From: an uncultured Gemmatimonadales bacterium
GTDB lineage: Bacteria; Gemmatimonadota; Gemmatimonadetes; Gemmatimonadales; GWC2-71-9
Direction: 5' to 3'
Assembly: GCA_963771275.1 (NCBI GenBank)
Contig: CAVYSW010000003.1
Coordinates: 96,001-160,000, forward strand
Length of the DNA stretch: 64,000 nt
Part shown: piece by piece, positions 19,715 to 48,915 of the stretch
Layout of the letters: each line of letters opens with the position of its first letter
How positions within the stretch are numbered: the stretch's first letter is position 1
The notes under the pieces: model-generated
What the model was told of the DNA's origin: nothing
Database searches by the model: none
The model's input: only the letters and a program-made list of their open reading frames with translations
Program-made: the position numbers and the translations under genes

Positions 19715-21357
19715 ACATCTACCTCGACGTCGTCTCGCCGGCGGCGAAAGAGGCCGGCGACTACGCCAGCGTCTACGACCTGGAGAACCACGGCCTCACG
19801 AATCTCCGGCGGGTCTACTGGAACCTCCCGACCCCCGCGCTCTACGAGGAGGTCGTGTTCCGCTCGGAGGGCCGGCTCTCCCACCTGGGCCCGATCGTCG
19901 TCAGCACCGGGAAGCACACCGCGCGCGCCGCGGCCGACAAGTTCGTGGTGCGCGAGCAGACCACCGAGCAGCACGTCTGGTGGGGCCAGTACAACCGGCC
20001 GTTCACCGAGGAGAGCTTCAGCGCGCTGCACGCCCGCCTGGTGGGCTACCTCCAGGGACGCGACGTGTTCGTGCAGGACTGCTACGCCGGCTCCGACCCC
20101 GAGTACCGGCTGCCGATCCGCATCATCGCCACCCGGGCGTGGCACGGACTGTTCGCGCGCACGATGTTCCAGCGCATCCGGAACCTCGACCAGCTGAAGA
20201 AGCACGTCCCGGAATTCACCGTCATCGCGGCGCCCTCGTTCATGGCGTCCCCGATGATCGACGGCACGCGGACCGAGACGTTCATCATCATCAACTTCCG
20301 GGAGCGGCTGGCCATCATTGGCGGATCGGCGTACGGCGGCGAGATCAAGAAGACGATCTTCACCGTGCTCAACTTCCTGCTGCCGCTCCAGAGCGTGCTG
20401 CCGATGCATTGCTCCGCCAACGTCGGCGCCGGCGGCGACGTCGCCCTGTTCTTCGGCCTCTCCGGCACCGGCAAGACCACCCTCTCGGCGGACCCCAAGC
20501 GCGGGTTGATCGGCGACGACGAGCACGGCTGGAGCGACAACGGCGTGTTCAACTTCGAGGATGGCTGCTATGCCAAGGTGATCCGGCTGTCGCCCACGGC
20601 GGAGCCGCAGATCTTCGCCTGCACGCGCCGCTTCGGCACCATCATCGAGAACGTCGTGATGGATCCCCTGTCGCGGCGGCTCGACCTGGACGACGACATC
20701 ATCACCGAGAACACCCGCGCGGCCTATCCGCTCGACTACATCGAGAACGCGGTGCCCGAGCGGCGGGCCGGCCATCCCAAGAACGTCATCTTCCTCACGT
20801 GCGACGCGACCGGCGTGATGCCGCCGATCGCGAAGCTCACGCCCGACCAGGCGATCTACCACTTCATCTCCGGCTACACCAGCAAGATCGCGGGCACGGA
20901 GGTGGGCCTCGGCATCGAGCCCGAGATCACGTTCAGCACCTGCTTCGGCGGCCCGTTCATGGTGCACCACCCGTACAAGTACGCCGAGCTCCTGAAGGCG
21001 CGGATGGTCAAGCACGGCGTGGACTGCTGGCTGGTGAACACCGGCTGGACGGGCGGCCCGTTCGGCGTGGGCAAGCGCTTCAGCATTCACCACACGCGGG
21101 CGCTGCTCAACGCCGCGCTCGAGGGCAAGCTGGCCAAGGTGCCGTACAAGCAGGACCCGGTGTTCGGCTTCGCGGTCCCGGCGACCTGCGAGGGCGTCCC
21201 GGACTCGATCCTCGATCCGGCCAACACGTGGGGCAGCCGGGACGAGTACTTCCGCAAGTACGACGCGCTGGCGGCGCGGTTCATCGAGAACTTCAAGCTG
21301 TTCAAGGACGGGTGCCCGGAGCACGTGATCCAGGCCGGCCCCAAGCGGTTGAAGTAA
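19711..21357 (+). CDS. pckA: Phosphoenolpyruvate carboxykinase (ATP)
   Basis: YGGEIKK, MHCSAN, FFGLSGTGKTTLS, LIGDDEHGW and NFEDGCYAK. ATGA overlap with the aminotransferase. Confidence 0.97.
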   Translation: MNIYLDVVSPAAKEAGDYASVYDLENHGLTNLRRVYWNLPTPALYEEVVFRSEGRLSHLGPIVVSTGKHTARAAADKFVVREQTTEQHVWWGQYNRPFTEESFSALHARLVGYLQGRDVFVQDCYAGSDPEYRLPIRIIATRAWHGLFARTMFQRIRNLDQLKKHVPEFTVIAAPSFMASPMIDGTRTETFIIINFRERLAIIGGSAYGGEIKKTIFTVLNFLLPLQSVLPMHCSANVGAGGDVALFFGLSGTGKTTLSADPKRGLIGDDEHGWSDNGVFNFEDGCYAKVIRLSPTAEPQIFACTRRFGTIIENVVMDPLSRRLDLDDDIITENTRAAYPLDYIENAVPERRAGHPKNVIFLTCDATGVMPPIAKLTPDQAIYHFISGYTSKIAGTEVGLGIEPEITFSTCFGGPFMVHHPYKYAELLKARMVKHGVDCWLVNTGWTGGPFGVGKRFSIHHTRALLNAALEGKLAKVPYKQDPVFGFAVPATCEGVPDSILDPANTWGSRDEYFRKYDALAARFIENFKLFKDGCPEHVIQAGPKRLK

Positions 21358-21367
21358 GCATCCCGTC

Positions 21368-21447
21368 ACAATACGAACGAGCCGGACGGTGATAACGCCG
21401 CCCGGCTCGTCTTGCGCAGCAAAACTGGCTGCGGACTCGCACCCTGT
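21368..21447 (-). ncRNA. Putative small RNA (copy 1) with a 5' end antisense to the adjacent tRNA anticodon arm
   Basis: Downstream of a sigma70 promoter. Begins ACAGGGUGCGAGUC, then hairpin CGCAGC/GCUGCG (21415-21433) and a 13-bp terminator-like hairpin (21377-21410). Homolog at 47312-47389. Confidence 0.7.
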
Positions 21448-21453
21448 GGCACG

Positions 21454-21482
21454 ATGATAGGAAGAACGTAGTGCGACGTCAA
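21454..21482 (-). promoter_or_regulatory. sigma70 promoter between the tRNA 3' end and the sRNA
   Basis: TTGACG (21482-21477), 17-nt spacer, TATCAT (21459-21454). Confidence 0.8.
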
Positions 21483-21493
21483 CAGCACGGCGG

Positions 21494-21577
21494 TGCTGGC
21501 GGTGGGATTCGAACCCACAAGAGCCGAAGCTCCACAGGGTGCGAGCCTGTTGCGTTTGCCAGTTTCGCCACGCCAGC
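21494..21577 (-). tRNA. Class II tRNA with a tRNA-Leu-type body and anticodon CGC (Ala codon GCG)
   Basis: Acceptor GCTGGCG/CGCCAGC-A73. D arm GCG-AAACTGGCAAA-CGC. Anticodon arm ACAGG-CT CGC AC-CCTGT. Variable arm GAGC-TTCG-GCTC. T arm GTGGG-TTCGAAT-CCCAC. No encoded CCA. Confidence 0.9.
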
Positions 21578-21855
21578 ACCTCCACAGCGGCGAGCCACTG
21601 ACAACCCGAAGGCGAGAGACGGAGTACTCGCACCCGTTCCGTGCCGCGCGTCAAGATTGTGCGCTTTGGCCATGATCAGGGTTACCGATTCCTCGCCGAG
21701 ATGACCCGGATCGCGCCGGCGGGCAGGGCCGCCCCGGACCTTCGGGGCTGCCTCCAACCGTCCCGGCCTCCTACCTTTCCCGGCGAGTCGCACCATCGCT
21801 GCACGCGCACCCACGGAGGCTCGGTGACCGCCCGGTCCTTCCGCACGCTCCCGCC

Positions 21856-24012
21856 ATGAGAATCGGCGCCTACGACCCCAGCGCCTGGGCCGGTCTGGTG
21901 TTCTCGGACCAGCCCGGCCGCGGGTTCGCGCTGCGCTGGGCTATCGAGCGGGACGGCGAGCGGGCGGACGGCGCGGATCTGCTGTTCCTGGTGCACGACG
22001 CGGGCCCGCACGACCCCGACGGCGGGTACGCGCGGGTCGAGTTCGACACGTCGCTCCCGTTCGGCAAGGGTGACGACACGCCGCTCGTCAGGAAGTCCCG
22101 CCGCACCGCCGGCCTCACCGTCGAGTGGTCGCGAACGGAGGAGGGCGCCCTCCTCCGCGCGACGGTGGCGTTCCGTGGCGTGCTCGAGCTGAGAGGCTAC
22201 TTCCCGTGGGACTGGGCCGGGCACTGGACCGCGGAGGCCACCGGCATGGCGGCCACCACCGCCGACGGCGGGCTCCGCTGCCGCGTGCGCACCGACCGCG
22301 CGGGCTCGGCCGCCGTGACGGAGCGCGGCGAGGCGGTGCTGCGGTTCGCCGTCTCCCCCGGCGACGCGGTGTACGTCACCGCCGCCGTGGGGGACGACGC
22401 GCCGCCGGCGTACGGGGCGGCGATCGCCGGCACGCTGCTCGACGGGGCGGAAGCCTACGCCGCGCGGCGCGTCGCGGCGGAGGGCGTCTGGGAGGGCCTC
22501 CCGGACTCCATCGCGAACAACATCCATTGGATGGTGTGCCTCCAGCCCGAAACGGGACGGCTGTACACGCCCGCGGGCCGGCGCTGGATCTTCCCTGCCT
22601 CCGCCCCCGGCGGCCGCGACCACTGGACCATCTTCGAGTGGGACTCGTTCTTCAACGCGCTCGAGCTGGGAGTCGAGAGCGAAGCGCTTGCCGTCTCCAC
22701 GCTCGAAGCCGTGCTCGCGACCCAATTCGACAACGGCAACATCCCAAACTGGCGCGGCCGGTTCTGGGGCCCGATGGACCGCTCGCAGCCGCCGGTGGGC
22801 GCGTTCTGCGTGCTGAAGCACTATCTCCGGTTCGGCGACCCGGCCGTGCTGGAACACGCGTTCCCCTACCTCGAGCGCTGGTCGGCCTGGTGGACGGCGC
22901 CCAAGGCCGGCAAGCCCCGGCGCGACGGCAACGCCAACGGCCTGTGCGAGTGGGGCTCGGACGTCGGCCTGGTCCGGCCGTCACCCGCCTCGTGGGAGAA
23001 CGGCACGACCGGGCATCAGCGCGCGGCCTGGGAGTCGGGCGAGGACGATCTCCCCAACTGGGACGACGGCGGCTGGAACGACGCGACGGAGACGATGGAG
23101 CTGGACGCGGTGGACTTGAACAGCTTCCTGGCGCTCGATCACGAATGTCTCGCCACCATCGCCCGGCGGCTCGGGCTCGCGGACCGGGCCGCGTTTCATC
23201 AGGAGCGCGCCACCGCCGTCCGCACCGCGATGAACGACGTCCTGTGGGACGACGGGCGCGGGCTCTATCTCGACCGCCACTGGGACGGCCGCCGCTCGGC
23301 CAGGCTCGCGGCGGCGAACTTCCTGCCGCTGATCGCCGGAGTCCCGAGCCCGGCCCAAGCCGAGCGGATGCTGGCAACCCTGCTCGACCCGGCGCGGCTC
23401 TGGGGGCCTTATGTCGTGCCCACCATCAGCCGGGACGACCCGGCGTTCAAGGACCAGCAGTACTGGCGCGGCACGATCTGGCCGCCCACCAACTACCTGC
23501 TCTATCAGGGGCTGCGCCGCTACGGCTTCGATCAGGCCGCGTCCGAGCTGGCTCAGCGCAGTGTGGATCTATTCCTCGGCACGTGGCGGACGTATCGCCT
23601 GTGCCGCGAGAACTACGACGCGCGCACCGGCGCGGGCGGCGGGCACCGCTACCAGAGCTGGGGACCGCTGTTCGCGCTGATCGGGATCGAGGAGTTTCTC
23701 GACGTGACGCCGTGGGACGGCCTCCGCATCGGCGCGCCCGCGGCACCGGGGCGCACCGTGCTGCGCCGGCTCCGCGCCCGGGGACACGCGTGGACCGTGA
23801 CGCTGGCCCCCGACGGGATGCGCGTCGAGATGGACGGCTCGCTGCTGTTCGAGAGCGACCGCCTGGTCGTGGCGCGTCAGGTCGAGGTGACGGCGGACGA
23901 GCTACGTGCCGAAGTGACGGCGAGCGTCGAGACGACGTTCCGAGCCGCCGGGGGGAGTCGCACGCTGAAGGCCGGCGAGCAGCACGTGGTCCTGCCGCGC
24001 CGGCCCGCGTGA
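21856..24012 (+). CDS. MGH1/GH63-like glycoside hydrolase (trehalase-like barrel)
   Basis: FEWDSFF, DRSQPPVG, ESGEDDLP, YWRGTIWPPTNY and ENY. Confidence 0.85.
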   Translation: MRIGAYDPSAWAGLVFSDQPGRGFALRWAIERDGERADGADLLFLVHDAGPHDPDGGYARVEFDTSLPFGKGDDTPLVRKSRRTAGLTVEWSRTEEGALLRATVAFRGVLELRGYFPWDWAGHWTAEATGMAATTADGGLRCRVRTDRAGSAAVTERGEAVLRFAVSPGDAVYVTAAVGDDAPPAYGAAIAGTLLDGAEAYAARRVAAEGVWEGLPDSIANNIHWMVCLQPETGRLYTPAGRRWIFPASAPGGRDHWTIFEWDSFFNALELGVESEALAVSTLEAVLATQFDNGNIPNWRGRFWGPMDRSQPPVGAFCVLKHYLRFGDPAVLEHAFPYLERWSAWWTAPKAGKPRRDGNANGLCEWGSDVGLVRPSPASWENGTTGHQRAAWESGEDDLPNWDDGGWNDATETMELDAVDLNSFLALDHECLATIARRLGLADRAAFHQERATAVRTAMNDVLWDDGRGLYLDRHWDGRRSARLAAANFLPLIAGVPSPAQAERMLATLLDPARLWGPYVVPTISRDDPAFKDQQYWRGTIWPPTNYLLYQGLRRYGFDQAASELAQRSVDLFLGTWRTYRLCRENYDARTGAGGGHRYQSWGPLFALIGIEEFLDVTPWDGLRIGAPAAPGRTVLRRLRARGHAWTVTLAPDGMRVEMDGSLLFESDRLVVARQVEVTADELRAEVTASVETTFRAAGGSRTLKAGEQHVVLPRRPA

Positions 24013-47179: not shown

Positions 47180-47299
47180 CAGAGCCAGCTCTAGCTCGAA
47201 CGGGTAGCACGGCACCCGGACTTCCTGATACAGCCGCCGCTTCGTGAGCTGGTCGGCTCTGCGTGTCGATGGGCTCAGCACTTCCACCACAAAGCGCAG
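47180..47299 (-). pseudogene. Uma2 endonuclease remnant
   Basis: LRFVVEVLSPSTRRADQLTKRRLYQEVRVPCY with no N-terminal half. Confidence 0.7.
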
Positions 47300-47311
47300 T
47301 TGGCTGGACCT

Positions 47312-47389
47312 GCCGAAACGATGAGCCGGCTGGCTTTCGCCATCCGCCTCATTCGGCGCAGCGAAACCACTACGCAAATCGCAGTCCGT
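47312..47389 (-). ncRNA. Putative small RNA (copy 2), homolog of 21368-21447
   Basis: Begins ACGGACUGCGA. Hairpins GCGUAGUG/CGCUGCGC and AUGAGGCGGAUGGC-GAAA-GCCAGCCGGCUCAU, with compensatory changes relative to copy 1. Confidence 0.65.
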
Positions 47390-47395
47390 ACACAC

Positions 47396-47425
47396 AGCGT
47401 ACGCTCGGCCTGCCGCTGCGGTCAA
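47396..47425 (-). promoter_or_regulatory. sigma70 promoter between tRNA copy 2 and sRNA copy 2
   Basis: TTGACC (47425-47420), 18-nt spacer, TACGCT (47401-47396). Same position as in copy 1. Confidence 0.7.
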
Positions 47426-47436
47426 TGGCGGGGGGG

Positions 47437-47521
47437 TGCTGGCGGTGGGACACGAACCCGCACGAGGGCCGAAGCCCGGAGGCTTGCGAGACCTCTGCGT
47501 TTGCCATTTCGCCACACCGGC
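47437..47521 (-). tRNA. Second Leu-body tRNA with CGC anticodon; mismatched stems, probably chimeric or impaired
   Basis: Acceptor GCCGGTG/CGCCAGC-A. Anticodon arm GAGGT-CT CGC AA-GCCTC. Variable arm GGGC-TTCG-GCCC. T arm GCGGG-TTCGTGT-CCCAC. Confidence 0.8.
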
Positions 47522-47739
47522 ACCCCTTCGGTTGCGACGCGAAGTGGATACGTGCGGATGTCTCGCATCGGCCCCCGCCGATGCGAGCATCAACCATGGC
47601 AAGCTCGACGCCGATGACGCAGGACCTCGCACGCGCTACCGAGCCGCGCGCTCAGGCCGGCTCGCCCAGCGCAGCGAAACCGCTCCATCTTCGTCCGCCC
47701 CCCGCCGTTTCCGCCCGGTTCCCGCTACCTTTCTCCCTG

Positions 47740-48915
47740 ATGTCCCAGCACACCATCTACCTCGACAACGCCGCCACCACGCCCGTCCTCCCCGACGTGC
47801 GGGAGGCCATGCTCCCGTTCCTTGGCGAGGCGGCCTTCGGCAACCCGTCGTCGCCGCACCGGGTGGGGCGCGCCGTGCGCGCGGCGGTCGAGGAGGCGCG
47901 GCATCAGGTGGCGGCGGCCGTGAGTGCCGACCCCAAGTGGGTGCTGTTCACCAGCGGCGGCACCGAAGCCGATAACCTCGCCGTGCTGGGGGGCGCCCTG
48001 GCGGCCCGCGCGGCGGGCCGGCCGTTCCGCGTGGCGGTGAGCGCCATCGAGCACAAGGCGGTGCTCGCTGCTGCGCACGCCGTCGAGGACCTGGGCGGCG
48101 AGGCGATCGTCATGCCGGTGGACGCGCACGGCGTGCTCGATGTCGACGCGGTCGACCGCGCGCTCACCGCGGGCGCCGATCTCGTCGCGGCCATGTGGGT
48201 CAACAACGAGACCGGCGCGCTGCAGCACGTCGCGACGCTCGCCCGCCGGGTCGCGGAAGCCGGCGGCTGGTTCGTGTGCGACGCCGTCCAGGCGCTCGGC
48301 AAGATCCCGTGCAACCTCGCCGACCTGCCCCGCACCATGCTCACCGTGTCGGCCCACAAGATCGGCGGGCCCAAGGGCGTGGGCGCCCTCATCGTGCCAG
48401 ACGTCCACGCCGTCCACCCGCTGATCCATGGCGGCGGCCAGCAGGGCGGCGTGCGGCCCGGCACGGAGAACGTCCCGGGCATCGTGGGCTTCGGGCGCGC
48501 GGCCGAGCTCGCGGTGCAGCACCTCGCGGCGCACGCCGGTCATACCGCGGCGCTGCGCGACGCGTTCGAGCAGCGGCTCCGCGCCGCGATCCCGGACGCC
48601 CTCGTCCATGGGGCCGGCGCGCCCCGCGCGCCGCACGTGAGCAACGTCGCCTTCCCCGGCGTGGACAGCGAAGCGCTGTTGATGCATCTCGACCTCGCAG
48701 GGGTGTGCTGCTCCTCCGGCTCGGCCTGCACCACCGGCTCCGTCACTCCCTCGCACGTCCTCACCGCCATGGACGTGCCCCGGGCGCTCGCGACCGCGTC
48801 GCTCCGCTTCTCATTCGGACCGCAGAACACGATGGACGAGGTAGAGCAAGTGCTGGCGGGGCTGCCGGCCATCGTGGCCAGGGTGCGGGACCTGGGGAAG
48901 GCGCTGGGACGATGA
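47740..48915 (+). CDS. Cysteine desulfurase (IscS/NifS type)
   Basis: [30 protein letters not shown] and SSGSACT. Confidence 0.94.

Follow-up and report, generated by a model that had tools for sequence, protein, structure and literature searches.

A leucine-type tRNA with an alanine anticodon and a co-varying anti-anticodon small-RNA gene make up a candidate RNA-only, toxin-antitoxin-like module in Gemmatimonadales

Can a bacterial cell keep a tRNA that has the body of a leucine tRNA and the anticodon of an alanine tRNA? Natural tRNAs with such a mismatch between identity and anticodon are rare, and how cells tolerate them is an open question. A gene of this kind lies at positions 21494-21577 of a 64,000-nucleotide stretch of DNA (hereafter the window) from an uncultured Gemmatimonadales bacterium (GenBank assembly GCA_963771275.1, contig CAVYSW010000003.1, positions 96,001 to 160,000). 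The sequence around this gene, which we call copy X1, suggests an answer in the form of a co-evolving antisense RNA gene.

An RNA-only module of ~330 nt surrounds nearly every tRNA of the family to which copy X1 belongs, and more than 70 loci from many assemblies share its layout: a promoter-like site, a leader of ~70-85 nt, the tRNA, a second promoter-like site, and a predicted small RNA of ~80 nt. The small RNA begins ~50 nt 3' of the tRNA on the same strand and consists of a single-stranded 5' seed, a hairpin and a terminator-like hairpin. The module is real, conserved and, as far as we found, undescribed; for its mechanism we offer a well-motivated hypothesis. Judging from the sequence, copy X1 would be the tRNA gene of a two-gene module in which an antisense RNA holds back a leucine-charged, misreading tRNA in a toxin-antitoxin-like way. 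We favor this reading tentatively, at a little under an even chance.

Copy X1 is a leucine-type tRNA with an alanine anticodon

The tRNA encoded by copy X1 has the architecture of a leucine tRNA. In the window, ARAGORN called a tRNA at 21492-21577 on the minus strand with the anticodon cgc and labelled it Ala, and the Rfam model RF00005 matched 21494-21577 with 57.8 bits (gathering score 29). The acceptor stem has 7 bp (GCUGGCG/CGCCAGC), and pair 3:70 is U:A. U8 and G9 precede a D stem of 3 bp (G10-C25, C11-G24, G12-C23; A13 and A22 are unpaired), and the D loop contains A14, A15, G18G19 and A20a. The anticodon arm has the stem ACAGG/CCUGU and the loop CUCGCAC (CU-CGC-AC). The variable arm is 15 nt long, with a 4-bp stem and a UUCG loop, and ends in U48; the T arm is canonical (GUGGG-UUCGAAU-CCCAC). 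A73 is followed by CC and then G, so that CCA is only partly encoded. The long variable arm, 7/5 acceptor and T stems and 3-bp D stem are those of a class-II tRNA-Leu. What does not fit leucine is the anticodon, which is neither NAG nor YAA but CGC in copy X1 and GGC, CAC, GGU or CUC in its relatives. Copy X1 also lacks the G3:U70 pair and the class-I body of a tRNA-Ala, having U3:A70 and a long variable arm instead.

Copy X1 carries the elements by which leucyl-tRNA synthetase (LeuRS) recognizes its substrates. In Escherichia coli the determinants are A73, A15-U48, G18G19, A20a and the tertiary pairs that join the D loop to the T loop, and the anticodon and variable arm play no role in leucine identity (PMC9976931; cited papers are represented here and below by their available portions). 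All of these determinants are present in copy X1. Because bacterial LeuRS ignores the anticodon, we infer that the tRNA would be leucylated, and it would then insert leucine at GCG codons.

The host genome (G000; 3.86 Mb, 11 contigs, ~70% GC) has the ordinary tRNAs as well. ARAGORN found class-I tRNA-Ala genes (CGC, GGC, UGC) and five tRNA-Leu isoacceptors elsewhere in this genome, and the true tRNA-Ala(CGC) has G3:U70. One LeuRS gene is present, and a dedicated synthetase was not found in the genome. GCG is the commonest codon of the host, at 69 per 1000 in 1192 long open reading frames (ORFs) with high GC3 (G+C at third codon positions). Among the 61 codons, those that match the anticodons of the family rank high: GCG is 1st, GCC 2nd, GUG 5th, GAG 6th and ACC 18th.

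Most of what an initial annotation had read from the letters of this tRNA was borne out: the 7/5 cloverleaf with a long variable arm, a 3-bp D stem, A15:U48, A73 and anticodon CGC, the lack of a G:U pair at 3:70, the LeuRS elements, and the high frequency of GCG. The normal tRNA-Ala genes that it proposed looking for do exist. It had also doubted that CGC was a sequencing error, rightly, as three public DNA runs, each from a different study, have contigs with an identical anticodon (21541-21543). The second CGC copy that it cited in support is real (Rfam 41.4 bits) but is a decayed paralog of the same module and so not independent support. The annotation was correct in seeing a leucine body with an alanine anticodon; it missed the antisense module and expected simple toxicity. 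The antisense gene beside the tRNA answers its objection that such a tRNA would be toxic.

Over the 461 bases compared among the DNA runs, the only differences were at 21424, 21489 and 21560. At 21560 one DNA run has T for C, a natural variant that changes G18 of the tRNA, a universally conserved tertiary position, to A.

The family is distinct from true leucine tRNAs and maintains its fold

Copy X1 has four paralogs in the host genome. Whole-genome ARAGORN calls gave five family members, with the loops CGC (three copies), GGC and GGU, and BLAST and covariance-model searches of genomes of the same order found full-length relatives with the loops CGC, GGC, CAC, GGU and CUC. In an alignment of 16 members (alignment A1), 98.2% of stem cells were paired and none of 500 shuffles reached the observed values; 12 of the 24 stem pairs, including all five of the anticodon stem, had compensatory changes. 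G1, C2, U8, A14, A15, G18G19, A21, U48 and A73 are invariant in the 16 members, as is most of the T loop; among these are the E. coli LeuRS determinants. A37 is also invariant and position 33 is always a pyrimidine, and pair 3:70 varies (U:A, C:G, G:C or C/A).

We judged the separation of the family from true leucine tRNAs by pairwise identity and nearest neighbors. The nearest neighbor of a family member was another member in 26 of 26 cases, and true tRNA-Leu genes likewise stood apart (23 of 23). Mean identity was 75.9% within the family and ~66% between the family and true tRNA-Leu genes of the same order.

The small RNA is complementary to the anticodon arm of its own tRNA

The predicted small RNA starts with a complement to the anticodon loop. 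In copy X1 the 16 nt of the seed, CCACAGGGTGCGAGTC, can form 15 Watson-Crick pairs and one G-U pair with the tRNA, covering the anticodon loop together with the 3' half of the anticodon stem and adjoining bases. We scored complementarity to the 5' stem strand and loop at 12 positions, tolerating G-U, for 77 distinct family tRNAs. The score was 12 of 12 in 52 tRNAs, at least 11 in 62 and at least 10 in 68, and in 67 of the 68 loci with at least 10 the antisense started 45-69 nt past A73. Among 118 control tRNA-Leu genes parsed alike (one of them from an unpublished genome, G094, on which no claim rests), one scored 12 of 12 and two at least 11, with scattered offsets. The full 7-nt loop complement was present in 66 of the 77. 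The nine low scorers comprise four non-family or other-phylum loci, copy X2, a few with an indel or another register, and locus L071, in which no antisense was found within the available 104 nt.

The same pairing emerged without prompting from an alignment of 29 modules (alignment A2). RNAalifold paired the 5' half of the tRNA with the downstream segment through 24 inter-region pairs, in which tRNA positions 24-38 pair with the first 15 nt of the small RNA and positions 7-15 with the far side of its hairpin 1. In the core helix, between tRNA positions 26-38 and the 5' end of the small RNA, 12 of the 13 pairs were changed on both sides and 93.2% of cells were paired. None of 500 shuffles matched this, and partners slid by 1-3 columns paired in 36-50% of cells.

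The seed follows the anticodon. The anti-loop tracks the anticodon type (CTCACAA/TTGTGAG, CCCTCAA/TTGAGGG, CTGGTAA/TTACCAG), and loop and anti-loop co-vary across five anticodon types. All seven loop positions vary except A37, with the partner compensating; in copy X5, U36 faces a G retained in the partner, which is a wobble pair. Of the 696 inter-RNA cells of the 24 pairs, 568 were Watson-Crick, 82 G-U, 38 other mismatches and 8 gaps. G-U was the commonest pair at one position, and half of the mismatches trace to three modules in another register. The excess of G-U over other mismatches indicates selection on RNA pairing, not on identity of a DNA repeat.

These findings bear on whether the locus is functional at all. 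It could be a tRNA-Leu pseudogene, an assembly artifact, or a DNA inverted repeat, such as a recombination site, kept by gene conversion: copy X2 is plainly decaying, and the arms do form an imperfect inverted repeat flanking a promoter-like segment. We find this hardly credible given that three independent DNA runs agree at the anticodon, that compensatory change maintains the cloverleaf across the family, that the layout is common to more than 70 loci from many assemblies, and that the non-Watson-Crick cells (82 G-U versus 38 other mismatches) have the pattern of RNA pairing.

The pairs are predicted to be specific. Seeds differ among the paralogs, each following its own tRNA. We used net cofold energies for this comparison because RNAduplex, applied to full-length GC-rich RNAs, did not separate cognate pairs from shuffles. 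The cognate values were -24.4 (X1), -18.9 (X3), -18.0 (X4) and -21.3 (X5) kcal/mol, and those of non-cognate pairs and of pairs with normal tRNAs (Leu CAG, Leu UAA, Ala CGC) lay between 0 and -12.7 kcal/mol. By these energies, the host genome has four mutually specific predicted pairs.

Promoter-like sites, leader and terminator-like hairpin

The small RNA is preceded by a promoter-like site of its own, P2. In copy X1 it matches the consensus at 10 of 12 positions; it was the sole site reported there (one site versus 0.0 expected in shuffles). The family form is TTGAC..17..TAnnnT, with the small RNA ~8-11 nt later. The best site in the spacer scored at least 8 of 12 in 48 of 71 modules versus 66 of 1420 shuffled spacers, and the -10 ended 8-11 nt ahead of the anti-loop in 63 of the 71. 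Alignment A2 shows no variation at the T of TTG or at the A of the -10, and almost none at the last T of the -10. For P1, the candidate promoter of leader and tRNA, a nearly invariant A and an invariant T lie four bases apart just 5' of the leader in alignment A2, which is the TAnnnT signature; a consensus promoter scan of the surroundings of copy X1 did not report it.

Downstream of the seed, both hairpins of the small RNA co-vary. Hairpin 1 was paired in 88.7% of cells, with compensatory change in 4 of 6 pairs (A2). Its loop and 3' strand also complement tRNA positions 7-19 (the D arm), and RNAalifold gave an alternative pairing with tRNA columns 160-168 of alignment A2. The helices of the terminator-like hairpin were paired in 97.4% and 80.5% of cells, and all 7 pairs had compensatory change; in copy X1 this hairpin lies opposite the 3' end (21357) of a convergent gene.

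The leader is similar to the small RNA. Its elements are a degenerate, G-rich motif resembling an anti-anticodon (GGGTGCGAGTACTC), the sequence GCGTC, a hairpin with UUCG (CGCCTTCGGG) and, directly ahead of G1, GGT; in common with the small RNA it has the G-rich anti-loop-like motif, GCGT and a CCAGGGTTCGC motif, split by the UUCG hairpin. A leader profile (nhmmer) found exactly the five module loci in the host genome at E<0.01. Single folds and RNAalifold yielded no consistent structure for the leader. We rejected two roles for it. As a specific cis-antisense it scored barely above non-cognate combinations (9.36 versus 8.72 of 12), and in pairing between its 5' end and the 3' trailer the longest helix had a mean of 5.9 bp in cognate and 5.45 bp in non-cognate combinations; examples of such matches are GCACGG/CCGTGC (copy X1), GCGAGG/CCTCGC and GCCAG/CTGGC.

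No hairpin resembling a terminator and no T run was seen in the inspected trailers that separate the tRNA from the antisense, and a terminator scan of 21300-21900 found none. The antidote is therefore probably co-transcribed with the tRNA, besides having its own promoter. Since the P1 transcript would contain both, the antisense segment and leader might instead act in cis within one precursor, gating RNase P or 3' processing, with P2 weak and no free small RNA formed. RNAalifold does fold the single strand into the tRNA-antisense duplex, P2 lies under the strict threshold in three of the four intact host copies, and the GGT before G1 could pair with A73-C-C. However, the conserved TTG/TAnnnT and the tight distance from -10 to antisense (8-11 nt in 63 of 71) are hard to explain without a start site, and an orphan locus retains promoter, seed, hairpin and terminator without a tRNA. 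We consider cis control as the whole explanation unlikely; control in cis is compatible with action in trans and does not exclude it.

None of this corresponds to a known RNA family. In Rfam 15, leader and small RNA reached no family's gathering threshold, and RF00005 was the only model that passed (copies X1 and X5). The next-best match, to PtaRNA1, involved the terminator hairpin on either strand and reached 22.2 bits where the threshold is 47; permissive thresholds gave chance-level matches only.

Table 1. Features of the module at copy X1 and of related loci in the host genome. Positions are those of the window or, where a contig number (C) precedes them, of contigs of the host genome (G000).
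Feature	Position	Strand	Details and basis
Candidate promoter P1 (leader-tRNA)	21647..21690	minus	-10-like CACAAT at 21656-21661; inferred
5' leader	21578..21646	minus	69 nt here, ~85 nt in most relatives; alignment A2, 29 modules
Class-II leucine-type tRNA, copy X1	21494..21577	minus	anticodon CGC at 21541-21543; ARAGORN, Rfam
Promoter-like P2	21454..21482	minus	-35 TTGACG 21477-21482, 17-nt spacer, -10 TATCAT 21454-21459
Small-RNA 5' seed CCACAGGGTGCGAGTC	21434..21449	minus	complement of tRNA G30..G45; sequence, RNAduplex, RNAcofold
Small-RNA hairpin 1	21416..21432	minus	GCAGC-CAGUUUU-GCUGC; A2 helix 324-329/340-345
Terminator-like hairpin and U-rich tail	21368..21408	minus	hairpin 21379-21408, tail 21368-21378; ends small RNA
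Copy X2 leader	47522..47645	minus	split by ~55-nt insertion carrying a perfect hairpin
Copy X2 tRNA, degraded	47437..47521	minus	anticodon CGC; ARAGORN 47434-47522; Rfam 41.4 bits
Copy X2 P2 and small-RNA remnant	47322..47425	minus	TTGACC 47420-47425, seed-like 47373-47387
Copy X3	C3:1869917		anticodon CGC; ARAGORN
Copy X4	C9:161276		loop GCGGCAC, 'GGC'; ARAGORN
Copy X5	C10:82433		loop CCGGUAA, 'GGU'; ARAGORN
Orphan small-RNA-like gene	C5:15269-15350	minus	profile search
LeuRS gene	C3:719001-721415		

The module has a patchy distribution centered on Gemmatimonadota

When one genome per species was scanned for the D arm together with U33-CGC-A37, 87 stretches were found, of which 80 were listed; 53 of these 80 carried Gemmatimonadota-type labels. 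An antisense scoring at least 11 of 12 in either register was present in 48 of the 53 and in 5 of the 27 listed loci with other labels (two 'Planctomycetales', and one each 'bacterium HR33', 'Gaiellaceae' and 'Chloroflexota'). The HR33, Gaiellaceae and Chloroflexota loci could be binning errors. The two Planctomycetales loci (L081 and L089) lie on two contigs of one metagenome-assembled genome (MAG) and have the same layout with a different acceptor stem: the leader motif GGGGTCGCGTAGACCAGTTTCC, tRNA(CGC), a promoter-like site, and TTGCGAGGACGG.. antisense running into a D-arm complement. They reflect either lateral spread or a mislabelled bin.

Within the phylum, a strict CGC/GGC pattern was found in 19 of 401 genomes: 14 of 165 in the family of the window, 4 of 5 in a sister family, none of 95 in a third and none of 135 in the remainder. 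This pattern undercounts, finding two of the five host-genome copies, and the tallies include two unpublished genomes. Two other search patterns were rejected. The covariance model of the tRNA family, used for distribution, also matched ordinary tRNA-Leu, in 101 of 101 genomes of the order, and an acceptor-stem pattern searched for in metagenomes is common in ordinary tRNA-Leu of many phyla, with 8 family members among the matches listed.

Leucine-type tRNA(CGC) genes recur in several phyla without the antisense. Ten loci (L050, L054, L060, L072, L079, L084, L103, L113, L115 and L123), in MAGs labelled Pseudomonadales, Gammaproteobacteria and 'Ca. Azophilus', form a separate group of class-II, leucine-like tRNAs(CGC) with a variable arm of ~27 nt, a GCCCCAG-type acceptor and no antisense within 150 nt. 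Similar lone tRNAs(CGC) occur on contigs labelled cyanobacteria (L057, L068), Dehalococcoidia (L049, L112), Chloroflexota (L082) and Alphaproteobacteria (L108). Such genes, together with the intact leucine identity set and the CGC anticodon of copy X1, would suit the plain reading of the initial annotation, a stand-alone, constitutively active mistranslating tRNA, as has been proposed for nematode nev-tRNAs or Streptomyces tRNAProA, beside which the complementarity is incidental. For the family described here we regard that as quite improbable, as the complementarity is present in 48 of the 53 listed Gemmatimonadota-labelled loci versus 1 of 118 tRNA-Leu genes at full score, and it co-varies.

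A phage origin was considered and rejected: 30 viral contigs matched a D-arm/SGCA pattern, most without an anticodon stem and none with an antisense. These IMG/VR contigs (L266-L295) have a leucine-type D arm, and in 28 of the 30 only 0-4 of the 5 anticodon-stem pairs can form; they may be tRNA-like phage genes with an interruption or some other irregularity.

One host copy has decayed, and one small-RNA-like gene has no tRNA

Profile searches of the host genome found exactly five modules and one orphan, and all five family tRNAs have a partner locus. In copy X2, which also lies in the window, tRNA, seed and leader have all decayed. The tRNA has C3/A70, a T-stem mismatch, the T loop UUCGUGU (A58 is lost) and a shorter D loop. 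The small-RNA remnant keeps a hairpin (47356-47375) and a terminator-like element (47323-47350), and its complementarity to the loop is down to 5 of 7; the net pairing energy, -5.0 kcal/mol, is no better than that of non-cognate pairs. The nhmmer leader match covers 47592-47645, and the module match is in two parts. The longest ORF of a class-V aminotransferase gene (cysteine desulfurase-like; 47263-48915, plus strand) spans the copy X2 tRNA. Since the Pfam domain begins only at residue 165, the aminotransferase start is probably well downstream of this tRNA.

The orphan has a promoter-like box (TTGACTCGGC), a seed (GTGCGAG) like that of copy X1, a hairpin and a terminator, and no tRNA was found within 330 nt upstream. 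Its predicted pairing with the five family tRNAs is weak (best -7.7 kcal/mol).

Interrupted family tRNAs were seen elsewhere. Those of L064 and L125 (both Gemmatimonadaceae-labelled), L058 and L077 break off within the T arm, and L064 and L125 run on into identical foreign sequence (GTGCCTGCGGTGAGCCTGCGGCTCATCC..), as if one element had inserted in both.

A proposed mechanism and the evidence against it

We propose that the module works as a toxin-antitoxin-like device or as a means of regulated mistranslation. Gene 1 (P1, leader and tRNA) would produce a tRNA that combines all known identity elements of bacterial leucine tRNAs with the anticodon of an abundant non-leucine codon. Gene 2 would produce, from P2, an RNA of ~80 nt whose 5' end is antisense to the anticodon loop and one strand of the stem and whose hairpin 1 is antisense to the D arm. 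The small RNA may dock on the pre-formed anticodon loop and then invade the anticodon and D stems. The L-shape would be unfolded, including the hinge that LeuRS needs, and the tRNA could then be neither leucylated nor used in decoding. In this way the small RNA would prevent harm both by covering the anticodon and by unfolding the hinge. As the unterminated P1 transcript would also carry the antisense, the antidote would be made at least one-for-one, with P2 supplying an excess.

Release would follow from a shortfall of the small RNA, for example after transcription shut-off or under stress. As a rule antisense RNAs are short-lived, unlike tRNAs. The long-lived tRNA, once freed, would put leucine at GCG, GCC, GUG, ACC or GAG codons proteome-wide, with damage or arrest as the outcome. 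This logic draws on the layout, on the combination of a stable tRNA with a labile antisense, and on the host genome having an orphan antidote but no orphan tRNA. It presumes that both RNAs are transcribed, that the tRNA is leucylated, used on the ribosome and toxic, and that a release trigger of this kind exists.

Of 21 public runs found, 20 contain the stretch in whole or in part, and none is recorded as RNA, which counts neither for nor against expression. Several observations weigh against this mechanism. P2 passes the strict consensus threshold in copy X1 only, not in X3-X5, and a strict terminator scan was positive in copies X5 and X4 and not in X1 or X3, that is, in two of the four intact copies. 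The mechanism assigns no role to the conserved leader. At 70% GC, GC-rich loops would tend to fit abundant codons anyway. Among the 27 listed leucine-type tRNA(CGC) loci without a Gemmatimonadota label, 20 have no nearby antisense, suggesting that such a tRNA may be tolerable without an antidote. Six of 16 family members have C33 instead of the U33 that is near-universal in decoding tRNAs, and nine noted relatives have the T loop UCCGAAU (C55), whereas G18:U55 is counted among the leucine determinants in the available part of PMC9976931. Finally, syntenic orthologs in one genus differ in anticodon (GGU in copy X5 and GGC in genome G006), which suits a device aimed at any abundant codon and a loop that is only a pairing site equally well.

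An alternative is an RNA pair that does not act in translation. The tRNA-shaped RNA might act as a sponge or decoy whose target is the small RNA, LeuRS, RNase P or another tRNA-binding factor, or it might form half of a switch made of two RNAs, with the anticodon loop serving as a pre-organized kissing loop whose triplet has no meaning in coding. C33 and C55, the change of anticodon between syntenic orthologs, and a loop in which every position but A37 varies with a compensating partner are all in line with this, and the second, degenerate antisense-like copy in the leader suggests a more elaborate RNA circuit. But the L-shape apparatus is kept far beyond what a kissing loop needs (A73, the encoded CC, U8, A14, A15:U48, G18G19 and, in most members, the T loop), and no member departs from A37 or from a pyrimidine at position 33. 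Because the seeds follow their own tRNA only, no conserved third target is apparent. On balance we judge a non-translational pair rather unlikely, though deserving of serious attention, and we tentatively keep to the antisense-held, misreading tRNA.

A further step would be to see the module as a new RNA-only class of toxin-antitoxin system, possibly serving abortive infection, with a mis-decoding tRNA that inserts leucine at the commonest codons as toxin, a small RNA that masks the anticodon and unfolds the tRNA as antitoxin, and several mutually orthogonal pairs per genome whose target codon shifts in the course of evolution. This is possible, but we are inclined to doubt it.

Comparison with known systems

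The closest tRNAs in form are the nev-tRNAs of nematodes, which belong to class II, carry Gly or Ile anticodons and are leucylated in vitro (PMC3333845, PMC4300185, as far as the available portions go). They have in common with the present family a leucine-type class-II body, a canonical fold, a foreign anticodon and conservation in one lineage. They differ in being eukaryotic, whereas the Gemmatimonadota family is bacterial, has a co-varying antisense gene and bears anticodons for the most abundant codons. We know of no dedicated antisense partner of nev-tRNAs.

Allo-tRNAs, found in Acidobacteria and other bacteria, have 8/4 or 9/3 stems and a tRNA-Sec-like D arm (PMC5389517; reviewed in PMC7609411) and have been shown to insert serine, alanine or cysteine, depending on which identity elements they carry (PMC5389517, PMC7609411). 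Roles in missense suppression and in regulation have been discussed for them, as has a link to toxin-antitoxin loci (PMC5389517). The initial annotation had offered them as a precedent. The comparison holds for a bacterial tRNA with a mismatch of identity and anticodon, but fails on the defining 8/4 or 9/3 acceptor and T stems, as the present family has a 7/5 fold with covariation in both helices, A73 and a leucine-type body; an anti-anticodon RNA is not described for allo-tRNAs in the portions of these papers available.

The Streptomyces tRNAProX/tRNAProA are natural mismatched tRNAs for which regulated mistranslation has been proposed (PMC10404621; reviewed in PMC11415595). They differ, as described in the available text, in having proline identity and a class-I body, and control in the Gemmatimonadota family would be by RNA. 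Some of them are reportedly paired with a protein, a synthetase paralog.

As a regulatory arrangement, the module resembles type I toxin-antitoxin systems. In hok/Sok, a short-lived antisense RNA with its own promoter neutralizes a stable toxic transcript. Recognition is initiated where a single-stranded 5' tail meets a U-turn loop, and the systems are multi-copy and patchy in distribution. At the level of sequence only, the module likewise has an antisense RNA gene with its own promoter-like site and terminator-like hairpin, complementary to a transcript. The hok toxin is the mRNA for a small membrane peptide and the two genes overlap, whereas the module would have a tRNA for its toxin, and its two genes lie side by side. 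The resemblance would thus be one of working, not of membership.

Other systems have single features in common with the module. In CreTA, a type VIII system, the toxin CreT works by sequestering a rare tRNA and the antitoxin CreA by way of Cascade; as here, both partners are RNA and translation is hit through the relationship of tRNA and codon. In the module, however, the tRNA itself would act, the antidote would pair with it directly, and no protein partner is conserved nearby. The T-box specifier reads a tRNA anticodon by pairing, in a leader that regulates a downstream gene and has an antiterminator pairing with NCCA, and the 3'ETS-leuZ sponge is a case of mutual titration by a small RNA and a tRNA transcript. 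The small RNA of the module gave no T-box match in Rfam, has its own terminator-like hairpin and no downstream regulated gene (the neighbors are unrelated and variously oriented), and pairs over 12-24 bp into the stems, versus 3 nt in the T-box. Its target, unlike that of 3'ETS-leuZ, would be the body of the mature tRNA, not a spacer.

None of these systems (nev-tRNAs, allo-tRNAs, tRNAProA, hok/Sok, CreTA, T-box, 3'ETS) joins a tRNA gene to a dedicated small-RNA gene that co-evolves with it and is directed against its anticodon. A search of the full-text literature, which did not extend to subscription-only papers and supplements, found no published description of such a module. If the proposed mechanism is right, it would add tRNA to toxin-antitoxin biology as a chemically new kind of toxin, with proteome-wide mistranslation kept as a switchable weapon or stress response, and the pairs would be natural orthogonal tRNA/anti-tRNA switches for synthetic biology. 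Even if the tRNA never decodes, the module is a new structured-RNA system of ~330 nt, with more than 70 loci and strong covariation, that is absent from Rfam 15.

Gene neighborhoods and further observations

The five host copies sit in unrelated neighborhoods, and module neighbors in general are housekeeping, transport, kinase or defense-type genes. Pfam scans of 28 and 43 neighboring ORFs revealed no shared protein neighbor. Ser/Thr kinase genes adjoin 6 of ~34 module loci in differing orientations (L002:4051-5676, L003:3515-5710, L006, L028, L038 and L140); this may exceed chance, or may merely mirror the abundance of kinases in these genomes. One module each adjoins a Phd/YefM antitoxin gene (L002:6563-6847), a HepT-like RNase toxin gene (L023:2-379), an Xre-type helix-turn-helix gene (L011:996-1562) and a Schlafen-type helicase gene (L010:3-1619), a faint hint of toxin-antitoxin or defense neighborhoods.

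The convergent gene next to copy X1 (20700-21357) has a second copy, ~70% identical, at C9:329290-329849 of the host genome. Relatives match both copies at ~70%, which makes this gene uninformative on the presence or absence of the module at the orthologous site.

About nine further long ARAGORN calls in the host genome appear to be false positives. ARAGORN also called a tRNA-Sec (tca) at C10:542960-543056.

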